From Vulcanimicrobiota bacterium (GTDB taxonomy: Bacteria > Vulcanimicrobiota > Vulcanimicrobiia > Vulcanimicrobiales > Vulcanimicrobiaceae): a stretch of DNA of 64,000 bases. The stretch lies in contig CAWCIZ010000001.1 in the NCBI GenBank assembly GCA_963795855.1, forward strand, positions 32,001-96,000. Direction: 5' to 3'. The notes under the pieces were generated by a model. It saw only the letters and a list, made by a program, of their open reading frames with translations. It was not told where the DNA came from and did not search any database. Position numbers and translations under genes: made by a program. Positions 7,147 to 22,237 of the stretch are shown in pieces (the stretch's first letter is position 1; every line of letters begins with the position of its first letter).

Positions 7147-7445
7147 AGCGAACCGCGGGCGCATTCCTGTGCGCGCTTGCATGCGACGCCGTCCTGCTCG
7201 CGGCGGTTTTTCCGCTCGCGCGCTATAGTTTAGCTGCGGCGCATGCCAGTCAGCCGAATCCCGCGCTGATCGCGACGCTGCTTTGTGCGAATCTCGTGCT
7301 CTTGTTGCTGTGCTTGTGCGCGTGCGGCGCGTGGATTTACGCGTTCTTCCAGAGCTTGCGCGCCACCCACGCGAGGGTCGTGAACGAAGCGACGGCGATC
7401 AGCAGAAATACGGTCGTTTCCAGAAGGACGACGCCCGCAAACTGA
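7143..7445 (+). CDS. Hypothetical membrane protein
   Basis: ATGA overlap with the previous gene and two hydrophobic segments, but the 3' end overlaps the convergent SCO gene by about 110 nt. Confidence 0.35.
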   Translation: MKRTAGAFLCALACDAVLLAAVFPLARYSLAAAHASQPNPALIATLLCANLVLLLLCLCACGAWIYAFFQSLRATHARVVNEATAISRNTVVSRRTTPAN

Positions 7446-8287
7446 CTGCCGCCGCAAAGTGCGACGGCGCCTGCGACAAGCGCGAGTTGAAGCCGCCCGA
7501 AGGGGTTGGACGCCATTCCCGCCATGTGCCGTGCCTGCGCGACCAACGCGCCCGGTGCAAAACTCACCGTCTGGACGATCTGCGCGACCTTTCCGTTTTG
7601 CGCGATGACGAATACTTTGTCGTTGTGGATGAAGTTCGCGTCGCTCACGCGCAGCGACGAGATGCCGAAACGATCGAGCAGCCGCGCGATCTCGTGCGGT
7701 TGGCCGGTGAGGATGGACCACGATTTCGCGTCGGCGCCGTATAGGCGTGCGTAATCGTTCAGCACGCGCGGCGAGTCGTAGACCGGATCGAGCGTAATTT
7801 CCAAGAGATGAAAGCGCGAAGCGTCCAGATGCTGCTGCATGTACGCGAATTTGGCGCTCACGGCGGGACATTCGTCTTTGTCGGGGCAGCGCGTGAAAAC
7901 GAAACTGATGAGCGCCACTTTACCATTGAAGTCCGAGGCGAGATCCACGAGCCGCCCATTCTGATCGACCAGTTTGGTGTGCGGCAGTGCAGAACCTAAG
8001 TCGATTGGAAAACCGCCGCCCGCATCGGGCAATCCGGGCACGAATTTTGCGGCGACGCCGGCGTCGAACAGCCGCCATGGCCGGGCCGAGGTATCGAGAA
8101 ATGCGTCGATGCCCGTTCCGCTCGGAAGCCGCATCGCCGGCGAAATCGTAAAGGGGCGCGTCTGAGCTGGAACCATTCGGGTAACGGCATCCGTGCGTAC
8201 GATCGTCGTGCGATCCGCGCCGGGGCCGAGCACCACGCCGTGAACCGGCACGAGCAGTGCGAGCAGCGAAAAAACCAGATGCAGCAT
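7337..8287 (-). CDS. SCO/SenC family copper chaperone with extra N-terminal (CusF-like?) domain and C-terminal TM
   Basis: LVDQNGR, FVFTRCPDKDECP, ITLDP..D, conserved His in FIHND. Confidence 0.85.
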   Translation of the reverse strand: MLHLVFSLLALLVPVHGVVLGPGADRTTIVRTDAVTRMVPAQTRPFTISPAMRLPSGTGIDAFLDTSARPWRLFDAGVAAKFVPGLPDAGGGFPIDLGSALPHTKLVDQNGRLVDLASDFNGKVALISFVFTRCPDKDECPAVSAKFAYMQQHLDASRFHLLEITLDPVYDSPRVLNDYARLYGADAKSWSILTGQPHEIARLLDRFGISSLRVSDANFIHNDKVFVIAQNGKVAQIVQTVSFAPGALVAQARHMAGMASNPFGRLQLALVAGAVALCGGSQFAGVVLLETTVFLLIAVASFTTLAWVARKLWKNA

Positions 8288-8294
8288 CCCGGAC

Positions 8295-8852
8295 TTAGTC
8301 TACGACGGTGCGAAGATCCGCCGCAACGTCTTTGAGCGAACTCTCCGGAACGAGCGTTTCGACCATGCGGCCATCGCGATCGATGATGAAGATGGTGTCC
8401 GTGTGCGCGATGTCGTTGCGTTGCGGCTCGACGCCGACCCCATAGGCGTTGTAGACCCGCTTCAAAGCGACCTGGGAACCGGTTAATCCGGTCGCTTGCA
8501 CGCCGACGCGCTGAAAGAATCGGCGCAACGCGGCGGGGGTATCGCGCTTGGCATCGACCGTTATCATCACGATACGAACCAGAGCCGGCGTAAGTCCGGC
8601 TTGCGCTCTGGCTTTACCTAACAATGCGAGCGTTTGCGGGCAGACGTCTTTGCAGTGCGTGAAGCCGAAATACAGCGCGACCGCCCGGCCGCGCGTTTGC
8701 GCGAGTGAGAACGGTTTGCCGGCCTGATCGATCAGCGTGAATGCAGGCGCAGTGCGCGCGGGTGCGAGCTGCATGCCGTGCAGCGGCGCGGACTTCGCGC
8801 ATGCGGCCAACACGACGAGCGCCGCAATTGCCGCGCGAACTCGCGAGCTCAT
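8295..8852 (-). CDS. SCO1/SenC family lipoprotein
   Basis: LAAC lipobox, FGFTHCKDVCP (CxxxC), IAHT. Confidence 0.92.
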   Translation of the reverse strand: MSSRVRAAIAALVVLAACAKSAPLHGMQLAPARTAPAFTLIDQAGKPFSLAQTRGRAVALYFGFTHCKDVCPQTLALLGKARAQAGLTPALVRIVMITVDAKRDTPAALRRFFQRVGVQATGLTGSQVALKRVYNAYGVGVEPQRNDIAHTDTIFIIDRDGRMVETLVPESSLKDVAADLRTVVD

Positions 8853-8974
8853 AGCATCCTCCGAAAGCGGCCAGTTAGGCTGGCCTAATTTGCCGCTTCA
8901 GAATACCAAACTGCCGACGACGGGCGTACGCCACAAGTCGGGGGGAATGTTCCGCGAAAGCAGTAGATAGGCGC

Positions 8975-9415
8975 ATGGCAGCGCTGACGCTTATCGTCCG
9001 AGTGCTTCTCGGCGCCCTATTGGTTGTAGCCGGGGGCTTGAAGGTCGGGCACTTCGACGATTTGGCAGCCGCCATTGCGGGCTTTCGAATCCTGCCCGAG
9101 GCGACCATCGGCCCGCTTGCCGTGGTACTGCCGTTTTTCGAAATCGGCCTCGGCGCTTATTTGATTCTGGGTCTTTTTACGCGCGTTGCGGCCATTATCG
9201 CCGCCGTGCAATTCACGATCTACAGCGCGGCAATAGCCTCTGCGGTGATACGGAACATCCCGGCGAATTGCGGATGCTTCGGACCGGGGGATTCGGCGAA
9301 GGCGGACTGGCCGCACGTATTCGTCGATCTTGCGCTCGCCGTTATCTGTGCGTTGCTTGCGTTTAGCGCGCCGGGTCTTTTCGCACTCGACAATCGCATC
9401 AGGAGCACTTCATGA
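8975..9415 (+). CDS. MauE/DoxX family membrane protein
   Basis: Four TM helices, E..LG, CGCFG motif. Confidence 0.85.
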   Translation: MAALTLIVRVLLGALLVVAGGLKVGHFDDLAAAIAGFRILPEATIGPLAVVLPFFEIGLGAYLILGLFTRVAAIIAAVQFTIYSAAIASAVIRNIPANCGCFGPGDSAKADWPHVFVDLALAVICALLAFSAPGLFALDNRIRSTS

Positions 9416-9981
9416 AGAATTCCCGACTGCTGCTTTGGACCACGATCGTCATCATCATCGTGGGCGTCCTCGTCGCGATTCGCTACGCGAACAAAGGCGG
9501 CGTGAAGAGAAGTTCGACGCAAGCGCCCGTCCTTGGGACCGCTCGACTAAACCAAAAAGCGCCCGAATTTCAAACGGCGACCACGCAAGGCGTCTTCAAT
9601 CTCGCGGACGTGCACGAACCGGTATTCTTGGAAATTTTCGCTACGTGGTGCCCGCACTGCCAGCGTGAGACGGCCGTCATCGACCAACTCTATGCGAAAT
9701 ACAAAGGAAAGGTTCGTTTTATCGCCGTGACCGGAAGCCACGTTGGGATGGATCACAATTCACCGGAGAGCGAACGAGATACGATTAATTTCGTGCAGCT
9801 TTTTCACGTGCAGTACCCGGTCGCATTCGACGGCTCGCTCGAGATCGCGAAGAAGTATCTGCAGAGCGGCTACCCGACGCTCGTGGTAATCAATCGCAAG
9901 AAGATCATCACGTATCTTACGAGCGGCGAAACGCGCTTCCCCGAACTAGACGCCGCCGTAAAGCACGCGCTGTCTTCCTAA
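9412..9981 (+). CDS. TlpA-like thiol:disulfide oxidoreductase
   Basis: N-terminal TM, FATWCPHCQ, GYPT cis-Pro motif. Confidence 0.9.
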   Translation: MKNSRLLLWTTIVIIIVGVLVAIRYANKGGVKRSSTQAPVLGTARLNQKAPEFQTATTQGVFNLADVHEPVFLEIFATWCPHCQRETAVIDQLYAKYKGKVRFIAVTGSHVGMDHNSPESERDTINFVQLFHVQYPVAFDGSLEIAKKYLQSGYPTLVVINRKKIITYLTSGETRFPELDAAVKHALSS

Positions 9982-10537: not shown

Positions 10538-11300
10538 TCAGTCGCCGACGGGCAGCACGTAATTCGGCGGTGGAACGACCGGTTGTCCGACTTCGAGCGT
10601 GATGATTTGATGCGAGCGCAGCGGAATCTCGCGCAAATCGCCGTCGTACGGGCGCCCGTTGACGAACGCCGTGACGGTGCCGGCGAACGGCACCGACGCG
10701 ATCGCGGCTCAGTTGCTCGCCCCAGATGTCGAAAAACATTCCGAGCGTAAACGGGCCGCCTTGCGGAGCCGTCACGCTGCCCGACTCGACGTGAATGACG
10801 CCGCTCGGATCGTGGGTGTGAATCCAGTACAGGCATCCGCCCTGCGCGTTCGGGCTCATGCCGATGAACGCGGGAACTTGCACTTGCGTGCCGTGGTCGA
10901 AAATTGCAAGATGCGAGTGAATGTGCAGCACGACGCCTTCACTGGTTTGACAAGGAATGCCATCGACGTCTTGTCCGCGCCCGCCTTGCGCCGTATCTTC
11001 CGGGTTGCCGTGCGCCAGATCCGATTTGGGGAATCCGATAGCTTTGCCTACAGCTTGCAGATTCGCCAGTTGGACCGGCTTGCTCGTCGGCGACGGTCCG
11101 GGGCTCGGCGTGCTGACCGCAAACGCGAACGCATCGGCGCGCGCCTTATTTTGAACGTAGTTCGTGATGCCGAAGATGATAAACACCAAAACGACGACGG
11201 CCGCAAGGCCGATATAGATCGGCACCATCGGGTCGCGTTTGGGCGGCGGCGCGTTTCCTCCGCGAGTGCTTCTGCGTCGTTCTGCGCGCGAGTGACTCAT
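10538..11300 (-). CDS. Membrane-anchored His-motif protein (HIH...CLYWIHTHD.SG.IH.E), single indel near 10690
   Basis: N-terminal TM; removing one G restores ...VGPFAGTVTAFVNG...IPLRSHQIITLEVG...PVGD-stop at 10538. Confidence 0.75.
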
Positions 11301-11304
11301 CGAA

Positions 11305-12321
11305 TTACTGTACTCCTGCGGGCGTCTGCGCCGGATCGAGCCGGCGGCCGGGCACTAAGTAATTGCGGACGTAATCATGCACCGCGTCCGCGAGCGGCGT
11401 TATGGGCGCGTCGTAACCGGCCGCGCGCAGTCTGTTGATTGCCGCGCACGTGCAATACTGGTATTTGTCACGCAGGGTCTCGGGCATCTCCACGAACTCT
11501 ATGCGTTCGGGTACGTTCATCGCGCCGAAAATCGGGCGCACCAAGTCGAGCCAGGTGTGCGGCGCCCCGGAGCCGACGTTGAACAGCCCGTTCGCTTCGT
11601 GCTCCGCCAGATGCAGCGTCATCGCCGCTGCATCCTTGACGTAGATGAAGTCGCGCTGCTGCTCGCCGTCGCGGAATTCCGGGCGATAGCTCTTGAAGAG
11701 CCGAATGGAACCGGTCTCACGAATTTGATGGAACGCTTTGTCCACCAAACTGCGCATCTCGCCTTTGTGATGCTCGTTGGGTCCGAAGACGTTGAAGTAT
11801 TTCACGCCCGCCATGCGTGCCAGGAGTCCGTGATCGCGCGCGTACAGATCGAAGCGGTGCTTCGAATACGCGTACATGTTGAGCGGACGGAGGGCATCCA
11901 GATCTCCGTCGTCGCGCAAGTCTCGCTCGAGAGCACCGTAGGTCGCGGCCGACGAGGCATAAACGAAGCGCACGCCGCGATCGACGGCCCAATGGGCGAG
12001 ATGTTTGGTGTACTCGTAGTTGTTTCGCATCAAGTACGCCGCGTCCGTCTCGGTCGTCGAGGAACACGCGCCCATATGAAAGAGCGTAGTGACGTTCGCG
12101 AAAACGGCTCCGCGCTGCGCCAGGCGTTCTTCGAAGTCGCCGGCATCGATGTAATCGCGATACCGAAGGGGGACGAGATTCTTCCACTTTTCGGACGTGT
12201 CCAGACGATCGACGACGAGAATGTCGTCGATGCCGCGAAGGTTTAGCGCCCAAATCAGGGCGCTTCCAATCAGGCCGGCGCCGCCGGTAACGACGACGTG
12301 GCCGCGAGCAAGATCGTGCAT
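11305..12321 (-). CDS. hldD: ADP-L-glycero-D-manno-heptose 6-epimerase
   Basis: TGGAGLIG, FHMGACSSTTE, YASSAATYG, PLNMYAYSK, YFNVFGPNE.HKG.M. Confidence 0.95.
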   Translation of the reverse strand: MHDLARGHVVVTGGAGLIGSALIWALNLRGIDDILVVDRLDTSEKWKNLVPLRYRDYIDAGDFEERLAQRGAVFANVTTLFHMGACSSTTETDAAYLMRNNYEYTKHLAHWAVDRGVRFVYASSAATYGALERDLRDDGDLDALRPLNMYAYSKHRFDLYARDHGLLARMAGVKYFNVFGPNEHHKGEMRSLVDKAFHQIRETGSIRLFKSYRPEFRDGEQQRDFIYVKDAAAMTLHLAEHEANGLFNVGSGAPHTWLDLVRPIFGAMNVPERIEFVEMPETLRDKYQYCTCAAINRLRAAGYDAPITPLADAVHDYVRNYLVPGRRLDPAQTPAGVQ

Positions 12322-12387
12322 GACCTAGTCGCCTACGTTGCGGGGCCCGCGGCGCGCGGTCCTGCCCCGCGGTGGGTAAAGGAAAAC

Positions 12388-14263
12388 ATGCGAGCGGCCG
12401 TTCTTGCATGCCTTTTGGCCGGCGCGACACCGTGCATGTGTCGAGCAGTACCCTCGCCGCAGCCGTCTGCTAACCCCGTGCAGATACATGCGGGCGGCGC
12501 CGTGACCGTTGTCGACCAGTCCGCGTCGGGCCCGGGGACGGTCGTGCCTTTCTTCAACGACTCGCCGGATAATCCGCAAACGCCATATGAGTTTTTTTCG
12601 CAAACGCCCGGCTTTACCGGCAGCGGCGCCCAAGCGCAATTCCACACAAACGTCGACTACACGCACAAGAAACTGCGGTTCGTGCTGAATGCGGGCGCGG
12701 AATCGTATGCGGGCAGCGGTCCAAACATCCTGTTCCTTGGCGAGCCGATACTTCCGACGGCGAACCCGTTCGTGACCTCGCGCACGCAATTCTTTCATTC
12801 ATACCTCGGGATCTTGGACGAGGTCGGCGCCAGTCGCGCATCACTGATAAATGGCTCCGTCGGAGCGTCCGACGGCTCGTGGAACGTGACCGGCGGCTGG
12901 TTTTTACCGTCGAAGACGCTGCCTTTCGTTTTTACGCCGCCGCCGCTTCCCGATTCGCCGCCGGCGATTGCGCCGCAGCTGCCGGAGAATCCGAACTCCG
13001 TAGTAGCTTCCCTGGAAAACTGGAATGAAAATTGGCCCGCTTTACCACTGCAGGGCGTCGACGTTTCCATGCAGCGCGCGGCGTACTCGGCCGGGTTTTT
13101 CGACGGCGCGCTTCCGAACGTCTACGTCGATCCGGTCTTCGGAAATTCGGCGCGCGCCGAGTCGCTTTTCTTCGGCGTCCACGGCGGTCACGGCCACGAA
13201 TACGCGGTACAGGCCGTGCGCCTCAATCAAAATGTCCGCGGCGGCGTGTTTCCCATTTCGGCCGGCGTGATGTGGGGAGGCAGTCTGGAAACGGGCGTCG
13301 GACCGGAAGGTCCTTTGCCGGAAAGCGATGTGTTTGGCCAGCGCAGCACGATCGTCGGCATCTCGGCAAATGTGCCGCTGTCGCCTCGAACGACGGCATT
13401 AGCCGAATTCGCGCGCTCGTGGTTTTCCGCGCAACATTTCAGTGCGCCCGGGAGATGCAACGCCGGGAGGCTACTACCATCTGCGTATCGTCCGCGCGTG
13501 GAGTGGGCATACGCTTGCGTTTGACGCGTATCGCATGGACCCGACGTATGCGCCGAACGTGCTGCCATACGGCAACGCGGTCGATGTATGGCCGGTTGCA
13601 TGGGCATGGCCGGCTACATGGTTGAAATCGAGCTATCAGATCGTTGAGAACGACCAAGTATCCGTGAATAGGCAAGGGCTTCGCTTGACGTACGATTCGG
13701 CGTCGGGGCGCCTGCGTTATCGTCTCGGCTACGCACAGTTCGCGCAAGTGACGCCCTATGATGCGGTCACTGCAAGGCAGCCCGGCTTCACCGATCCGTA
13801 CTTCACGTCCGAGGACACCGCGACGCTCAGTTACCGCGGCACGCAACACGAAGTCTTGGGGTCGTTGCAGTGGAACGGACCCTGGTTGCAAGCATCGCTG
13901 GACCTCGTCGATGATTTTCTACGCCGAGCCGCTCCGCAAACAAACCCCGAAGAAGGCGTGCACATGGATTATCCGCAAGCGCTGGTGACGCTTTCGCATG
14001 CCGGCAAGAATGCGGTGTACGCGGCGGGTGAAGGCCGTTTCGCTCTCAGCGGCTGTTACGCGCTTTGCGAAACCGCTGCGGTTCAACTAGAGCAACGCGT
14101 CTACTTTGCGGGCCTTACTTTCGCGGTGGCACCGCGCAGTTCGTGGCTGTTGGAATGGCGCAGATACGTCACGGACGGCGTGCCGTTCGTGGATTTTTCG
14201 TCGCCGCCGGCATATACCGGAACGAGGGTAATTTTGGAAGAGCGCTTCACGCTGTCGCCGTGA
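12388..14263 (+). CDS. Putative outer-membrane beta-barrel protein, frameshifted near 13450
   Basis: Signal peptide; amphipathic beta-strand pattern across ORFs 12298-13524 and 13442-14263. Confidence 0.55.
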
Positions 14264-14287
14264 TGGCGTGAAGCGCTCTTCCGGCGT

Positions 14288-16638
14288 TTAGAACGGCGCG
14301 GTGAGCCGCAGAAGCACGTTTCGCCCCTGCGCGATCTGCGTCGTGTTGAAGCCGTTCGCGATCTTGATCACGTACTGGTGATTCAGCAGATTTTGGACGT
14401 CGAGGTTGAAGCCGATCGAATGATCGCTGCCGCGGCCCGCGTCCTTGCCGAAGCCGAGATCGAACGTCATGTGCGCCGGGAGACGGTCGACGCCCGCTTC
14501 AAAACTCACCGGATAGCCCGTGCCGTACTCGCTCTGCAGCGTCGCGTACCATGCGCGATTCTGCCCGAAGCGGTGCGTATACGCGCCGTTCGCCTCGTAC
14601 GTCTGGTCGTGATCCTCCGGCGCGAGATCCGCCGCGGTGAACGGCATTCCGCTGTTGACTCCGCAGTTGGGTATCGTCGTCGTGCCCGGCGGGCAGAAGA
14701 GGAACAGTCCGCCGGAGATGTCGCCGGCTTCGGAATGCGAGATGGTGCTCGATACGAACCACGAATCGCCGTTCGCGCGATTACCCTGCAGGCGAATGTC
14801 CAAGCCTTCATCGCGTCCGATTGCATTGTTGAAGACGGCGAACAGCGGCGTGTTGAGCAGCTGCGTCGTGTCCAAGATGTTCACGGCAGTACGCCGGAAA
14901 TAGTTGACGTAGCCGGTCACCCCCGGACGGAACGTGTGCGCCACGCCCATTTCGAAATACGAGTCGCGCTCGGGCTGCAAATCGTACGGAATGTTCGTGA
15001 GGTCGCAGCCGAGCGAAACGACGCACGCGCCGCGCACGTCTTCGAGTGCGGCGCCGCATACATTCGCCCGTAGTAGAAGTGCACGACGTTCTTGTCGTCC
15101 GGCGCGATGTTGACGCCGATTCTTGGGCTGATCTGCGATCCGCTGGTGAATCCGGTCGAGTGGTCGTAGCGCACGCCGTAGCTGACGCTGAGCGCGCGCG
15201 ATGGCGACCATTTGTCTTCCGCGTAGATACCGGTTTGCGTGCCCGGTTGCGCGACGGTCGTTTGCGACGTGGTGTACGCAAGCGGATTCGGCGAGCCGGG
15301 CGCCGCGATGAGGCTGCTCGCAGCGTAGTTCTCGCGGCTGAAGTCCACGCCTACTTTGACCGCGTGGTGCGCAGTCGCGCGGAAATCCGAGAGGCGCACG
15401 CCGGTATACGCCGCGCGCTGATCCTGGCTCAGGCCCGCTAAATACTGCGGATTCCCGTTGCCGTCCGGGACGTATGCTTGCACGTCGTTCTGCAAGTCGC
15501 CCTCGTACGCGACGCGCGTGTAGCGGACCCACGGAATGAACTGGAATATGCCGTTTCCGTCTTTGGAAACGTGCGTGAAGTTGAAGTTTGCGTACCGGTC
15601 GTACTCACGCTGCACGTCATCCGTGCCGGGCAGGCTGACCTGCGGATCGACCGGGTTATTCGGGTCCGTGTTTATCGGAATCTGAAACTGCGCCAATTGG
15701 TTCGAAAAATCGAACGCGAGCGAATTCTGCGTGCCGAACGAGGCGATGTAACGCAGAAACTGATCCGACTGCGACGAATTGTCGTGGATGGGCGCGTAGG
15801 TCGGCGTATCAAGACCGCGATTGGTCGTCTGCGCGTTGGCGTTGAAGAAAAGTTCCGAGCTCGGCGTGAGTTTGAGGGCTTCGTCGAAGCTCGTCATGCC
15901 TTGCCCGTAGTTTCCGCCGCCGATCGTGAACGCGCCTTGCTCCGGACGCTGCAGATCCGCCAGGCGATTCGTTTGAATGTTGACTACCGCGCCCATGCGG
16001 CTTCCGCCGTATTCCGCCGGGAACGCTCCGGTGAACACTTCGAGTGAATCGATGTTTTTCGGATCGATCATTTCGGCGAAATTCGACGTGGTCGCCTGCG
16101 GAATCGGCGCGCCGTCGATTTCGTACGTCAAGCCGTGGAAGCCGTTCGCGACCGGCTCGTTGTAGGAAAACTTGACGATGCCGGGCACCGTCTGTACGAG
16201 ATTGTTCAGACTGTTGTTCGTGGGAAGCGCCGCCAACTGCTGGCGTGTAAGGACGTTTTGCGAAATCGGCGTACCCGACGCGCCCGCGCGCGAGAGAACG
16301 TTGGCGCTCGCAATCGTCTTGAGTTCGCCGAGCGCGAAATTGATCGTGAGCACCTGATCCGAGGCAACCGTGATGTCCACTTTCTTTTCGGCGACGCCTG
16401 GATACGACGCGGAAAGCGTGTAGCTGCCGAATGGAACCTCCGAGAAAACGTAGGCGCCTGCGGAGTCCGTCTTCGATCGGAGCAGCGAGCCTTCACCGCT
16501 GAGCGACAAGGCGACGCCGGCTTCGGGTTTGTTATTGACGAGAATCGTACCGCGAACTAAGCCGGTCGTGGCCGCCACGGCCGGAAGCGCGGATAAACAG
16601 AGAAGAGCGGCAAACGCCGCCGCGATGATTCGGTACAT
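14288..16638 (-). CDS. TonB-dependent receptor with N-terminal carboxypeptidase-regulatory-like domain, frameshift near 15050
   Basis: Plug motifs (TVPGI, IDG.P, IDSLEV.TG.FPAEYGG...AVVNI), SPRIG, LDVQNLLN and C-terminal Phe. Confidence 0.9.
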
Positions 16639-16642
16639 GGGA

Positions 16643-16686
16643 CCTTCCTAAAAGCGTGAAGTGGGAGATGTCGCGTTTAGGAAAGG
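16643..16686 (-). promoter_or_regulatory. Hairpin pairing the end of the upstream ORF (CUUUCCUAAA) with the receptor SD (UUUAGGAAGG)
   Basis: Plus strand ccttcctaaa 16643-16652 versus tttaggaaagg 16676-16686. Confidence 0.7.
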
Positions 16687-17183
16687 GCCGGCGGCGGCCG
16701 GGAAAACAGCGCGAAGCGCACGATCGTGCGCCGCACCGCGGGACGGCGTGAAATGAAATCCGCAAAAAACGCTGACGGCGAGCGTCTCACCGGCGACGAG
16801 AGCAGCGATGCGACGGTCGATACGGTCAGCGCAAATGCGCGCAGCACGACGGTAACGACGGAAGCCGCAACGGCGACGGTTACCAGGCAAAGCAGCAGCG
16901 GGATCGCATGCGGCGATTCGAGCGCTTCGAGCGCGGCCAACCAAGCGGCGGCGCTAAACGCAAGCGGCACGAAACGGGGCAAACAGTGCAGCCGGCGCAC
17001 CGCCCCGACCGCGGCCCATAGCGAGCCAGCGAAAGCAAAGCCGAAGGCCAACCCAAGCGAGGCCGAATGCAGCGAGCCGCCGACGGTGTGTTCCGCGCCG
17101 AAGACCAGCGTGTGCGCAAGCAGCGCTGCCGGCAGTCCCAGCAGCAGCGAAACGCCGGCATTTCGTGCGGCGCTCAGTCTCAC
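16677..17183 (-). CDS. Polytopic membrane protein with His residues and C-terminal RPPP (candidate arrest peptide)
   Basis: GTG overlaps the MCO stop (GTGA); about 4 TM helices; LAH...H..GG..H; ends FSRPPPALS. Confidence 0.7.
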   Translation of the reverse strand: MRLSAARNAGVSLLLGLPAALLAHTLVFGAEHTVGGSLHSASLGLAFGFAFAGSLWAAVGAVRRLHCLPRFVPLAFSAAAWLAALEALESPHAIPLLLCLVTVAVAASVVTVVLRAFALTVSTVASLLSSPVRRSPSAFFADFISRRPAVRRTIVRFALFSRPPPALS

Positions 17184-18607
17184 GGCCGGTACACGACCTC
17201 CGTCATCATGCCGTCCATCATATGGATTTCGTTGTGGCAGTGCAACAGCCAACGTCCGGGCGGAGAATCCGCGCGGAATTGCCACGTGGCCGTACCCCCG
17301 TTCGCGCGTACGAGCGAGGTATCTTTGGGCAGGGGGCGGGCAAGCTGCGTGCCGTCGACCTCAGTAAGATGAAAGACGTGACCGTGCAAGTGCATGGGGT
17401 GATCCATGTCGGTCTTGTTGTGGAAGCGCACGGTTATGGTATCGTCGCGCTGCACGAAAATCTTTGCGGTATTCGGATAGGTTTTACCGTTAATCGTCCA
17501 CTTGTTGCCGGCGTATTCGCCGCCGCCGAGCGTGAAGGCGTAATGCTGCCGTCCCGCAATCGGAGCAACGGTACCGGTTCGAAGTCCGCCGGCTTTTTCG
17601 TACGTGAAATAATCGACGCCCTCGAGCGATTGACTCGCAGCCTGAGGCGATGCGTGCTCCATCCCTTCCGTATACATCACCGCAGCCTGCTGGTACGCGA
17701 GCGGATCGCTCGATACGCCCTGCAGCAAGAATGCGCCGGGCTTGCGAATATCGACGTACGCGTCGTAACGTTCGGCTACTCCGACGCGCAGTGCGTCGAC
17801 CTCCAACGGCTTCTCGAGGCGATTGCCGTCCGCATGCGTGACCGTGAGGCGATGACCGGCTAGGCGAACGTACCGGGTTTGCGTCGGATTTGCGTTGAGA
17901 ACGCGAAGACGAACGCGGTCGCCGGCCTTCACCGCGAGCTTGCGCGTGTTCGGATACGACGCACCGTTGATGCAGTGCGCGACGTAGGCAACTTCGTCGC
18001 CCATTTTGTCGTTCGGCTGCATCTGCGTCATTTCGGGCGACCCGATCGGGTCGACCATCGGCGCGTTGCTGGTGCCCATCATTGCCGCTTGTATCGTGTT
18101 CAACTTCGGAACGTCGTGAAAGACGAGCGCGAACTCCTTATCGGCGGGCTCGTCGTTCGGATCGTCGACGATAATCAAACCGAACAAACCGCGGGCGATG
18201 CCGTCGCTTACGTGATCGTGATACCAGCGCGTGCCGCTGGGACCCGGCGTGAACTCGTACAAAAACGATTCGCGGTCCGGCACGGCGGCTTGCGTCACGC
18301 CTTCGACGCCGTCCATCTTGTTCGGCAGAATCATGCCGTGCCAATGAATCGTGGCCGGTTCGCCGCTGTTGTTGACGAATTTTGCGCGCAGCCGCTGGCC
18401 GCACGCGATCCGCAGAACCGGACCGGGTATCGAGCCGTTGTACGCGAGGCCGGCAAAATCCACGCCCGGAACCGGCGAGAAACTGAGCGGCGCCGCCGTG
18501 AGCGCGTAATCAACGCTGTCGCTCGCGAGTGCGCGACGTGAAAGCGGCGGCAAAGCCGCCGCCAGCATCGCGCCGCCGCCCGCGAAGAGAAAGCCGGATC
18601 GGCGCAT
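17180..18607 (-). CDS. Tat-exported three-domain multicopper oxidase
   Basis: MRRSGFL Tat signal; IHWHG, WYHDH, HPMHLHGH, HCHNEIHMMDGMM. Confidence 0.95.
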   Translation of the reverse strand: MRRSGFLFAGGGAMLAAALPPLSRRALASDSVDYALTAAPLSFSPVPGVDFAGLAYNGSIPGPVLRIACGQRLRAKFVNNSGEPATIHWHGMILPNKMDGVEGVTQAAVPDRESFLYEFTPGPSGTRWYHDHVSDGIARGLFGLIIVDDPNDEPADKEFALVFHDVPKLNTIQAAMMGTSNAPMVDPIGSPEMTQMQPNDKMGDEVAYVAHCINGASYPNTRKLAVKAGDRVRLRVLNANPTQTRYVRLAGHRLTVTHADGNRLEKPLEVDALRVGVAERYDAYVDIRKPGAFLLQGVSSDPLAYQQAAVMYTEGMEHASPQAASQSLEGVDYFTYEKAGGLRTGTVAPIAGRQHYAFTLGGGEYAGNKWTINGKTYPNTAKIFVQRDDTITVRFHNKTDMDHPMHLHGHVFHLTEVDGTQLARPLPKDTSLVRANGGTATWQFRADSPPGRWLLHCHNEIHMMDGMMTEVVYRP

Positions 18608-19277
18608 CAACTTCCGACCGTGAGCGGTACGTCCAGCGTCTTTCCGTCGTAGTTTACGCGCACGGTCCACGGACCACCCATCGAGAAGACGATCCGCCCG
18701 GTAAACACGTGCGGATCCGCCGCGCTGGGGCGAAGTTTCACCTCCCGCGTCTGCATGCTGCCGGTTCCCATGCGCATGATCGGAAGAACGCTTACGCTCT
18801 TGGGAGGAGTTCCGGGAAAGCGAATCGTGATTGCTGCGACGTCCGTCGGCGTCGCGGGATCGATGGAGACCACCGGCTGCGCGTTGTTCGCTCCGCCGTC
18901 TAGAGCGGACAGGTACGCCACGATGTCGCTGACTTGCGCGGGAGCGAATCCGAAGTTCGGCATCGGCGCGCGTGGATGCACGATGAAGTCTGCAATCCGA
19001 TCGGCAGTGAGGCGGTGCTCGATTCCGTAGAGTTTCGGTCCGACGGAGCCGCCCATCAAACGCACGCCATGACATCCCGCGCATCCGCTCGCCTGAACGA
19101 GCTTCGCGCCCGCGTTCGCATCACCGGCGTTCGAGTCGGCCGGCGTCGCATCCGCCGCAATGCTACGGTACGGCGTCATGCCGGGGAACGTGGCGTGACG
19201 CGTTTTCGCGGAGATCGCCAAAACCGCGACTGCGACGGCGCACGCTGCGCGCGCGCCCGTAAGAAGCCTTGCTTCAA
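18607..19277 (-). CDS. Monoheme cytochrome c fused to a FixH/YtkA-like Ig domain; probable indel in the signal peptide
   Basis: CAGCH, GP.L, PMPNF (Met ligand); C-terminal FSMGGPWTVRV; GGAGG SD before TTG at 19277. Confidence 0.8.
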
Positions 19278-19363
19278 AAAGGACCTCCGATTGGATTAAA
19301 CGCCGGCTGGCATGAGGCAGAAGCGGCTATCCAATCGGAAGACGCTCGCGACCTGCCGGCCCT

Positions 19364-20242
19364 TCACTGGCGCAGCGCGAAATACACACCGGGCAAATGC
19401 GCCGAATTCGGGTTGCCCGTACCGATCTCGATCCAAATCGCTTCATGGGAGTAGAGCGGCATGGTGTGCGGATCGGACGTCCACAGTTTGTACTGGCTGG
19501 CGCCGATCTCGCACGAGACGACGGTGGAGCACGGCACCGTGGCCGAGTTTCCGGACGTATACACCGTCACCGTTCCGTGGTACGGGCCGAATTGCGTCGA
19601 ATTCACCTTCACGCCCCAAATATCGAAAAGGTTTCCCAGCGTGAAAAGCGATTTCGTAATCGGCGCGTGCGTGGGATTCGGATCCTCCATGTGAACCAGA
19701 CCGCTGGCATCGTGCACGTGGACGTGGTAGAAGCATTCGCCGTAAATCTCTTCGTTCGACCAGCCGGAGTATTTGTCGTACTGATCGCCTGCCGCGCGGA
19801 CGATACCGACTGCGTCGGGGAGCGCGAGTTCCTTGCCGGTGGCATAAATGCCGACGAACGCGTGAATGTGATAGTTGTTCGACATCGTGGGATCGCACGA
19901 AATGTTGTCGACCTTATTTCCGGTCGGGCCTTGGCCGCCGCCGCCCGGTTTCGCTCCCGGATCGGCCGGCATCAAATCGCCGTCGTACTGTCCGGAAGCC
20001 GGCTTGTTATCGGCGTCGTTGTTGCTCGTTCGGAACGAGTTGTCCAGGCCGTTGATCTTGCCTTGACCCGCGGTTCGCCACGTGTACGCGAACGGTGTCG
20101 GTGCGGGCGAGGCGGCCGTCGACATCGCGTTGCGTGTTTGCGGGACGACCGATGGAACCGGTTGCGTCTGGCGCCCGGAACATGCCGCGAACACTCCGAG
20201 CGTCAGCGCGCCGAGCGGAATAAGAGCGGATTTGCGCAGCAT
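19364..20242 (-). CDS. His-motif lipoprotein (paralog of 10538-11300)
   Basis: FAAC lipobox; YHIHAF, CFYHVHVHDASGLVHME, FTLGNLFDIWG, PLYSHE. Confidence 0.8.
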   Translation of the reverse strand: MLRKSALIPLGALTLGVFAACSGRQTQPVPSVVPQTRNAMSTAASPAPTPFAYTWRTAGQGKINGLDNSFRTSNNDADNKPASGQYDGDLMPADPGAKPGGGGQGPTGNKVDNISCDPTMSNNYHIHAFVGIYATGKELALPDAVGIVRAAGDQYDKYSGWSNEEIYGECFYHVHVHDASGLVHMEDPNPTHAPITKSLFTLGNLFDIWGVKVNSTQFGPYHGTVTVYTSGNSATVPCSTVVSCEIGASQYKLWTSDPHTMPLYSHEAIWIEIGTGNPNSAHLPGVYFALRQ

Positions 20243-20407
20243 AGCATCCTCCACGTGCGAAGCGATGCTCCATGGTAGCGGCTTTGGGATTATCCGGTAG
20301 AGGCCCAGGCAGGGACTGCGCGTAGGGCCAAACAGGCTTGCCTGCCTTCTGGTGCATGGAGAGGCGCAGTGCCAAGCAGCCCTGCGCCTCTTCCTATATG
20401 CTCGGCG

Positions 20408-21427
20408 TTACCACTGCTCGATAGAAGGCGACGTTCGGCAACGACGACCCGGTCGAGATTCCCGGCGCCCACGTCGACGAAAATCACCTCGTGCGAGTAC
20501 AGCGGTATCGCGTTGGGATCGCCGGTATACAGCGAGTAGTGGTTGGAGCCCACCTCCGAGTTACTGCCTGGACCGCCCCTCGCGACCGGTCCGGACGTGT
20601 ATATCTGCACGAGCCCCGTCATGATCGGCGCGCCGTTCGAATAAATGCCGGTCGGCATGATCTGCACGCCCCATTCGGTGAGAAAATCGCCGAGCGTGAA
20701 GATCGACATATTGCACGGCGTGGCGTTCTTTGTGAATCCGCCGCAGTCCGGACCCGTGGATTCGACGTGGATGACGCCGCTTGCATCGTGTGTGTGCATC
20801 TCGTAGAAGCACTGCGTTGCATAGTTGGTCCAATTGTGGATCGTGATGCCGTTGATCGGCAGGTCGCCGTCGCCCTCAGGCTCCGCCATGCCGATACCGT
20901 CCGAAAGCGCGACCGCGGAACCGTTGTTGTAAAAGCCGAGAAACGCGTGCACATGATAGTTATCTGGCATGCTCGCAAGACACGGTACCATGTCGCCCTG
21001 CGGTCCGGTCACTGAAGTATTTACGGGGCCGTGTCCGCCGCTGGGATAATTGCCGTCATTCTTATCTTGCGCCTTCGGGCTGCCGGCGAATACGGTGTCG
21101 TCGCCGTTGAATCTGTCCCGAGCCGACGCTGTACACCAGTTTCTGGTTCGCGGTAGGCGTCGCGTTCGGGGTCGGAGTCGTGACCGGCGTCGCCGTAGGC
21201 TTCGGCGTCTGCGTTTGCACCGGAGTCGGCGACATAGTCGGACTCAGAGTCGGCGCGGGCGTCGTGCTCGTTGTCGCTGTGGGTCCGGGCGAACCCGTGG
21301 GATGGCTGCTCGGCCCCGGATTCGTCGTCGGGACCGGTGGTGCGCTGCCGCCTCCGCCTCCGCAGGCGGCGAGAATGGTGAGTGCGGTAAAACAGGCAAA
21401 AGCCGTTAGAGTCCCAACGCGACGCAT
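20408..21427 (-). CDS. His-motif lipoprotein (third paralog), several indels
   Basis: LAACGGGGG lipobox and PT linker (21062-21427) continuing into YHVHAF, CFYEMHTHDASGVIHVE, FTLGDFL.EWG, IPLYSHE (20290-21012). Confidence 0.7.
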
Positions 21428-21543
21428 CTGTCTCTCCAGTTGGACGTGTTGCGTCCATGGTAGCGGGAGTCAGGCGCAGGCTGGAGGTCCACCGGGGGTC
21501 GCGGCACAGGGTCGAAGCGCGGCGGTCTAGGGACCTTCGGGCC

Positions 21544-21569
21544 GGAACCGCACCCCTGGAGACGGGGTT
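21544..21569 (+). promoter_or_regulatory. Candidate ECF (SigH/SigR-type) promoter GGAAC-N18-GTT
   Basis: ggaac 21544-21548, 18-nt spacer, gtt 21567-21569, upstream of the ymdB operon. Confidence 0.4.
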
Positions 21570-21646
21570 GTTAAGTCGTGAAAGCACAAGGGGTGGCCTT
21601 GAGGCGGCGTCTAATAGACGGGACCCCCCGCCCGTAAAACGGGGAT

Positions 21647-22237
21647 ATGCCTAGTGCCAAAGTTGGCCGGAAAGAGACGGTTAGCGTCATGAGTGCCCGG
21701 TTGCCGGTAGAAAACAGCGATACCGTGAGTCTGGTTTGCGCATTGCTCGTGCGCTATCCGGAGATCGCGTCCATTCGCAGCATGCCCGGCGACGGCACCG
21801 TCCGCTTCAGTTACGCCGTCGCTTCGCGCATCGACCGCGCGACGCAGCGCGGCATCGGCGAGGAGATCGAAGCGCACGTCGACGGCTTCCTCTCGCTGGT
21901 CGGCGACCGCGGCGAGATCAAAGTCGAATGCGAGTCCGATCGCGCGCTCAGTTTCGTGCACGTCACGCGCGACTTGGAGACGTTCACCAAAGACGAACTC
22001 GCGATGCTTACCAGCTTCCTCGCCGACCGCTTCGGCAACGCGCTCGTGCGCAATCCCGTTCCCGACGAACAGGCCGACGAGGATCCCGCTTTTCAAGATG
22101 AATTGGCCGAGTCGGCGATTGAAGCGCTGCGCGATCCGGCTCAATCGAAGAGTTTGGTCGGATTCCGCGAGGAGAAGCGCGTTCTGGTATACTTTTTGAA
22201 ATCGCAGAAGAAAGCAAAGGCGTCGGCCCGCAGATAG
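21647..22237 (+). CDS. Conserved hypothetical protein
   Basis: Host-like codon usage; stop overlaps the ymdB start; start could be 21689. Confidence 0.7.
   Translation: MPSAKVGRKETVSVMSARLPVENSDTVSLVCALLVRYPEIASIRSMPGDGTVRFSYAVASRIDRATQRGIGEEIEAHVDGFLSLVGDRGEIKVECESDRALSFVHVTRDLETFTKDELAMLTSFLADRFGNALVRNPVPDEQADEDPAFQDELAESAIEALRDPAQSKSLVGFREEKRVLVYFLKSQKKAKASARR

Follow-up and report, generated by a model that had tools for sequence, protein, structure and literature searches.

Within the window, i.e., the 64,000-nucleotide stretch of Vulcanimicrobiota DNA analyzed here, a reverse-strand operon carries a short open reading frame (ORF) between an oxidase gene and a receptor gene. This ORF (16677..17183, −) runs from GTG 17183 to TAA 16677 and encodes a 168-residue protein, hereafter the leader, with four predicted helices (N-in, C-in) and a C-terminal RPPP motif. 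The reading frame ends FS-RPPP-ALS-stop with the RPPP codons at 16700-16689, as an earlier note on this DNA had read it. The GTG start overlaps the stop codon of a Tat-type multicopper oxidase gene (17180..18607, −) in a GTGA, and the two genes are translationally coupled. Downstream lies a TonB-dependent receptor gene (14288..16638, −) with a carboxypeptidase-regulatory-like domain, a plug and a barrel; its Pfam Plug and TonB barrel domains bear out the identity that the note had given it. Since the leader is coupled to the oxidase gene in the window, synthesis of the receptor would depend on expression of the operon as well as on a stall in the leader, as proposed below.

Two frames in this operon are interrupted: the receptor gene is split by a one-base gap near 15046 relative to two relatives, and the gene for a cytochrome c plus YtkA-like protein upstream of the oxidase (18607..19277, −) has its signal peptide out of frame in the assembly. 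Because rpoB of the same assembly is broken as well (twice), both breaks are probably indel errors of the assembly. On the same grounds, with a lesion of a single base, a truly dead receptor was set aside as the less likely reading.

Distribution, fold and putative ligand site of the leader family

By homology searches, the leader belongs to a protein family without a name that occurs in Ca. Eremiobacterota/Vulcanimicrobiota. Across the phylum, 92 of 201 genomes (a tally that includes two genomes marked unpublished) gave a match to a 16-member profile; matches occurred in 90 of 113 genomes from the bacterium's own taxonomic family and in 1 of 87 from elsewhere. With a 121-member profile, 69 of 86 genomes from that taxonomic family matched, and 0 of 35 from two further families of the same class. 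Named homologs come from Ca. Eremiobacteraeota, Cybelea, Tumulicola and Tyrphobacter. We tallied 99 distinct loci, each with a match reaching the C-terminus and one of them (L008) from an unpublished genome; nine partial matches were left out, among them two lacking a C-terminal match (L114, L116) and one that looked spurious (L121). No claim depends on the unpublished genomes by themselves. No paralog was found in the leader's own genome, where a scan for an RxPP motif followed by a stop codon, a Shine-Dalgarno (SD) sequence and a long ORF returned two candidates, the leader and a likely shadow frame, and searches of plasmids and of one Gemmatirosa record yielded no match.

The C-terminal motif is nearly constant throughout. 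Among the 99 loci, 92 end in RPPP and 7 in RAPP. When 1.84 billion representatives were searched, the matches fell into 254 clusters (50% identity); of the best 150, 134 end in RPPP, 7 in RAPP and 1 in RIPG, and 8 have no such motif. All four divergent members end in RAPP ahead of a receptor, and RPPP and RAPP replace each other in several branches of a 70-row tree whose root is unsure. The motif arginine is retained with all four CGN codons, and motif conservation across these alignments is far above chance. Residue-level conservation with free codons also ruled out that the leader is a shadow ORF of a GC-rich genome. Among accessible papers, we found none that names the family; the tables of PMC12992588 may include its RAPP members. 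The published screen took only RAPP and RGPP and would have missed most members (those at 92 of 99 loci); RPPP leaders, if the lineage-wide metal switch considered below is real, would form a large class overlooked by such screens.

An AlphaFold2 model (pLDDT 88.7) places helices at residues 3-28, 36-62, 71-87 and 96-129, followed by a free tail, in agreement with the four hydrophobic segments and with the approximately four transmembrane helices anticipated by the earlier note. Charge bias predicts the N-terminus, loop 2 and the tail to lie inside (mean 2.2, 2.8 and 6.2 K/R) and loops 1 and 3 outside (mean 0.1 and 0.4 K/R). Six conserved His/Glu residues sit at the outer helix ends, on the predicted periplasmic face: H24 and H32 (121/121 sequences) with H39 (95/121) at the end of helix 1, in the first periplasmic loop and at the start of helix 2 (17067..17114, −), and an ExxExxH formed by E86 and E89 (121/121) with H92 (110/121) at the end of helix 3 and in the second periplasmic loop (16908..16928, −). 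From this topology we infer that these putative ligands would meet in space. The candidate ligands had previously been named as histidines; the motifs LAH24, EH32, LH39 and PH92 are indeed conserved, RLH66 is not, and the invariant E86 and E89 belong to the set as well. No Cys or Met is conserved in the 121 sequences, C67 and C99 of the leader included.

The distance between this putative site and the motif is nearly fixed. RPPP (R162-P165; 16689..16700, −), the predicted arrest core, begins 73 residues past E89, and the E89-to-R distance is 72-77 in 118 of 121 sequences, whereas the H32-to-E86 distance varies from 47 to 72; apart from the motif and its distance, the tail is unconserved. The ribosome exit tunnel holds about 30-40 residues, and because of this standard length helix 4 would be at the translocon when RPPP reaches the peptidyl transferase center. 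The leader would thus insert co-translationally into the inner membrane as four helices, N-in, and at RPPP some 35-40 tail residues would fill the tunnel with helix 4 just inserted and the His/Glu site (H24, H32, E86, E89 and usually H39 and H92) complete at that moment.

Searches of Pfam, NCBIfam and PDB sequences returned no match for the leader, nor did Rfam for the region, and Foldseek with the leader model gave nothing at E ≤ 0.001. VIA-align returned YbbAP at the top (Z 8.6, rmsd 4.1, 125 aligned) along with several FtsX/MacB-type membrane domains; we dropped this likeness as a clue to function and regard it as a common four-helix arrangement.

Predicted pairing of the leader end with the downstream ribosome-binding site

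The last two codons and the stop codon of the leader form an anti-SD arm (16676..16685, −), which occupies +10 to +19 when counted from the codon predicted to sit in the P site. As the earlier note had described, CUUUCCUAAA (16685-16676) is complementary to UUUAGGAAGG (16653-16644), giving 10 base pairs with one U-G; the second arm (16644..16653, −) holds the receptor SD AGGAAGG, which ends 6 nt upstream of ATG 16638. The hairpin at 16630-16700 has a minimum free energy of −22.9 kcal/mol (z −3.1, equaled by 0 of 200 shuffles), with z of −1.67 and −3.05 for folded segments of 101 and 150 nt. Its strength by itself is unexceptional, as 26 of 265 genes of the genome have a ribosome-binding site (RBS) equally hard to open, and synonymous recoding of the arm gave p = 0.115 at this single locus. 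The case for the hairpin therefore rests on the family.

Across 97 loci (L008 and L108 were dropped and five start sites corrected by hand), the arm-SD duplex averaged −16.9 kcal/mol versus −11.0 after synonymous recoding, and the native duplex was better than its recodings in 91 loci, with p ≤ 0.05 in 74. Two registers were observed. In 83 loci the Pro codons, situated 1-10 codons ahead of the stop, form the start of the arm; in the other 14, the window included, it lies in the tail and stop codon. Motif positions 2 and 3, the latter being the P-site Pro, use CCT in 58/97 and 71/97 loci, against 230 of 3579 Pro codons (6%) in the downstream genes, and the third codon is CCG in 7 of 12 loci where the SD reads GGAAG or GGAAA versus 4 of 79 elsewhere. 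At four positions beyond a fixed SD anchor, 163 of 316 cells were Watson-Crick (permutation mean 118.5, 0/5000; slid registers 43-55), and one locus per genus gave 44 of 88 (mean 27.1, 0/5000), although these permutation tests are still inflated by relatedness of the loci. The earlier note had suggested looking in homologs for RxPP conservation, stop spacing and covariation of the hairpin; the motif is present at 99/99 loci, the spacing between E89 and the motif is nearly fixed, and the arm-SD pairing covaries across loci.

We then simulated a ribosome footprint on the leader. At the window, the predicted cost of RBS opening fell from 13.2 to 11.4, 8.8 and 5.0 kcal/mol with footprints reaching +10, +13 and +15, respectively, a drop at +15 that is matched in 2 of 265 genes of the genome, the window's locus being one of them. 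Because the arm spans +10 to +19, opening at the window depends on footprint length. Computation finds what is expected of a RAPP-like arrest peptide: a small membrane protein that carries a conserved RxPP close to its C-terminal end, and a co-oriented downstream gene whose SD is predicted to be masked within reach of the stalled ribosome. A ribosome held at RPPP would cover the anti-SD arm and leave the receptor SD free (ON), while run-through and termination would let the hairpin refold (OFF, with basal leak). This attenuator logic, put forward in the earlier note, is backed by motif conservation, spacing and covariation, and we consider arrest-coupled control of the downstream RBS, with the stall as the ON state, to be quite probable.

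The same hairpin might be opened by plain translational coupling. The leader would then be a stand-alone membrane protein, e.g., a metal chaperone or receptor accessory, and any passing or terminating ribosome would open the hairpin, with RPPP merely slowing it. That reading draws on the window's arm, which includes the stop codon and would be covered by a terminating ribosome too, a point against stall-specific opening; on the EF-P encoded by the genome, which likewise speaks against arrest at RPPP; and on the predicted stable fold of the bundle. It fits poorly with arms that start at the Pro codons well before the stop in most loci, with a tail in which only the motif and its distance are kept, with the presence of the same protein before unrelated genes, and with RPPP persisting in loci where the Pro codons do not pair, and we regard it as improbable. 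This last pattern also ruled out that PPP is kept only as RNA.

How readily RPPP arrests ribosomes can be gauged from published work. RPPP was the strongest XPPP staller without EF-P, and stalling at it is normally EF-P-sensitive (PMC4176338). The RPPP variant of ApdP (A132P) gave 2.4 units versus 1.9 for wild type in B. subtilis and only partial arrest in E. coli (491 versus 152 units), and a RAPP-like motif by itself is insufficient for arrest (PMC12992588).

Alternatively, as in CruR, the stall could affect chiefly transcription by preventing Rho-dependent termination, the hairpin then playing a subordinate part. The genome encodes Rho, and the spacer is rich in C and poor in G (817 C and 327 G across 97 loci); yet the spacer is mostly 30-70 nt long versus 162 nt for cruR-bfrG (bioRxiv 10.1101/2022.11.11.516240), and the covarying pairing targets the SD itself. 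We deem this route highly improbable, and retain control of translation through the masked SD as the preferred reading.

Downstream genes, candidate input and relation to published arrest peptides

At 76 of the 99 loci, the gene that directly follows the leader encodes a TonB receptor. At seven loci it encodes an unnamed exported protein, with CopD next; at another seven a CopC-CopD-peptidase fusion, with YcnI next; at four a redoxin; at three a 580-residue cytochrome, with an oxidase next; and at one locus each an oxidase and a protein of unknown type. All of these targets are exported proteins. When 22 non-receptor loci were screened, 21 had a gene for CopC, CopD, YcnI or a multicopper oxidase behind the leader, and they are spread across five or more branches of the tree, with the qualification that the copper-gene queries were derived from these same loci and that relatives are not independent. 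For receptor loci, the locus DNA covered here contained a copper gene in only 7 of 75, always an oxidase directly upstream as in the window. An operon-internal position, which the earlier note had taken as distinguishing the leader, occurs in only 7 of 99 loci and is no trait of the family. The fusion found at L102:3636-5672 and in six relatives joins CopC-CopD to a signal peptidase I (S26) domain.

Stand-alone members (e.g., L052-L064) have an SD-like motif upstream in only 5 of 85 cases; most show instead, at roughly 9-14 nt ahead of the start codon, a TAGAA-type element rich in A, together with a conserved AGG-TC-CCCC near −35. These leaders are probably translated from leaderless transcripts made from a conserved promoter.

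As in a metal-sensing leader, a conserved putative site, set at a nearly constant distance before the motif, is combined with metal-homeostasis targets. Metal sensing has indirect support in the invariance of the periplasmic His/Glu residues and in the copper genes among the targets. Stalling, metal binding, the identity of the metal and the polarity of the response are what we infer from these patterns. Specifically, a divalent metal, most likely copper, would set the dwell time at RPPP by occupying the putative site; in the more likely polarity, metal binding would fold the bundle, pull on the chain, release the stall and shut uptake. Release by metal, as in CruR, is mildly preferred over induction of the stall by metal, as in CutF, because most targets are uptake-type genes; TonB receptors, CopCD and YcnI are the genes that we take to be of this type. 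Overall, a cis-acting arrest-peptide attenuator with a metal-set dwell time is our best explanation, held with reasonable though not strong confidence. Arrest-coupled control with a metal as input is about as probable, and with copper as that input slightly short of an even chance.

Copper is the less secure part. Known Cu(I) sensors use Cys or Met, and the putative site has no conserved residue of either kind, a point against copper, while His and Glu would fit Fe, Mn, Zn and Ni equally. An arrest-coupled attenuator that reads Fe(II), Mn, Zn, Ni, Co, protons or heme at this site would agree with ligands that are His and Glu only, with the three loci in which the leader precedes a cytochrome-porin-like gene and an oxidase, and with the receptor, whose weak best matches among cargo models are heme and siderophore receptors, far below cut-off. 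The receptor itself has invariant or near-invariant His residues and a plug GFHG in 45 of 45 sequences. That the leader was recruited several times independently to operons for CopC, CopD, YcnI and oxidases argues against a non-copper input, as does the window, which is itself a copper-handling cluster (oxidase, two Sco-like genes and redoxin); such an input appears unlikely. The arrest-peptide literature examined contained no Fe(II)-sensing arrest peptide.

Another possibility is that the leader is a monitoring substrate whose stall reports membrane insertion (Sec/YidC force), like SecM, MifM and ApcA, with the His/Glu residues serving structure or quality control. Every target is exported, and the tail length suits a force-sensing geometry, but no sec or yidC gene is a target at any of the 99 loci, and four invariant polar ligands on one face would be unnecessary for a force reporter. 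This we find as improbable as plain coupling, and a metal-set stall is still preferred. SecM, MifM, ApdA, ApdP and ApcA do resemble the proposed system in that a stalled ribosome opens an SD-masking stem-loop and in their RAPP-like core; unlike the leader, these peptides report on Sec/YidC, stand ahead of secA, secDF or yidC and have no metal site described (PMC10987492, PMC10951233).

The contrast with Bordetella pertussis CruR drawn in the earlier note overstated the novelty of the leader, since four-helix, His-bearing RAPP/RGPP peptides ahead of metal genes had already been published (SLIV_18480, PMC12992588). By its architecture, SLIV_18480 of Streptomyces lividans is a closer precedent than CruR and the nearest published one. 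It has four transmembrane helices with three His and a Met as predicted ligands, and it arrests in vitro and in vivo; it shares with the leader the four predicted helices, conserved His, a C-terminal RxPP and a metal-related downstream gene, and differs in its ligands (three His and Met versus His and Glu) and motif (RGPP/RAPP versus mostly RPPP) (PMC12992588).

We assume that the actinomycete ycnI leader family (A3), represented by L138, belongs to the SLIV_18480 class, SLIV_18480 being compared by description only. Helices of A3 (5-29, 37-55, 61-79 and 96-139, with a His ending helix 1) are laid out nearly as in the leader, whereas its site (H27, H76, M103, H107) differs from the leader's His/Glu set without conserved Met. 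The hhalign probability between the two families was 1.2%, and cross-HMM scores were no better than reversed controls, with A3 being one low-diversity family; VIA-align of the actinomycete leader model gave an unrelated list of matches, which speaks neither for nor against kinship. Atlas feature neighbors of one divergent member were unnamed Actinomycetota clusters (0.96-0.97), with a recognition value below the 2300 mark. The L138 leader (L138:1837-2376) is a four-helix RGPP protein before ycnI; its family A3, with 2881 matches among 8000 candidates scored, lacks a Pfam match and is widely labeled 'MFS transporter' in public records.

CruR itself has an RxPP three residues before its stop, a downstream TonB receptor and a fixed CxxC-RAPP spacing comparable to the E89-to-R distance, but relies on CxxC, a single export signal, Rho-dependent termination and a long spacer, and heads its operon (PMC9426467). 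Rhodobacter capsulatus CutF shares a C-terminal PPP and an oxidase context (bioRxiv 10.1101/2025.02.05.636593; 10.1101/2022.11.11.516240), and its stall melts a stem-loop over the downstream SD while the nascent chain senses the periplasm, as proposed for the leader; CutF is secreted, binds Cu via CxxxC and stalls because of Cu, whereas the leader is polytopic with a Cys-free site (bioRxiv 10.1101/2025.02.05.636593). By profile search and layout, the leader is not a DUF2946 protein: neither it nor 16 members matched PF11162, a conserved CxxC or CxxxC is absent (any CxxC occurs in 7 of the best 150 of 254 clusters), and four helices replace the DUF2946-type signal peptide or single N-terminal helix with a soluble body. 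DUF2946 scores above its cut-off in 0 of 81 genomes from the taxonomic family, so the leader probably fills its niche there. More speculatively, and with limited confidence in the joint claim, a lineage-wide Cys-free metal switch would have replaced DUF2946 in the family, with the periplasmic His/Glu residues reading a divalent cation, i.e., Cu(II) or Fe(II), and pulling on the RPPP arrest across the membrane, and with the third Pro selected as anti-Shine-Dalgarno.

Taken together, the leader of this uncultured soil bacterium most likely acts as a built-in switch through which translation responds to metal, and would represent a new variety of a regulator type known since 2022. How force generated by a ligand rather than by Sec can release a RAPP-type arrest is an open question according to PMC12992588. 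The family offers a compact test case: its four putative ligands are invariant, the spacer length is nearly fixed, RPPP and RAPP have been exchanged in nature, and the hairpin comes in two natural registers. The receptor family behind the leader is a candidate metal importer of acid-soil Eremiobacterota.

Operon head and neighboring genes

Upstream of the cytochrome c gene lies a decayed 3′ remnant of a second leader (19284..19345, −; blastn 78% over 132 nt to L119, E 1.5e-22), which keeps an intact SD-masking hairpin before that gene and also occurs in G005 (L030). The window's cytochrome corresponds to the C-terminal part of the 580-residue cytochrome found behind a full leader in three relatives (G002, G018 and G026), so the body of the second leader, along with the greater part of the 580-residue cytochrome gene, has apparently disappeared from the operon head. 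The remnant hairpin, with no ribosome to open it, may repress the cytochrome-oxidase-leader chain. No sigma-70 consensus promoter was found in 13500-21700.

The Sco-like genes and the redoxin gene mentioned above lie 4-7 kb past the receptor, together with a MauE/DoxX gene (7337-9981). Three paralogs of an unnamed exported family flank the operon (19364-21012, −, and about 10590-11300, −); the family has a conserved H-x-H-x-H, further copies elsewhere in the genome and no Pfam or NCBIfam match. Convergent with the receptor gene, two overlapping ORFs without a Pfam match (12298-14263, +) look like one frameshifted outer-membrane protein gene.
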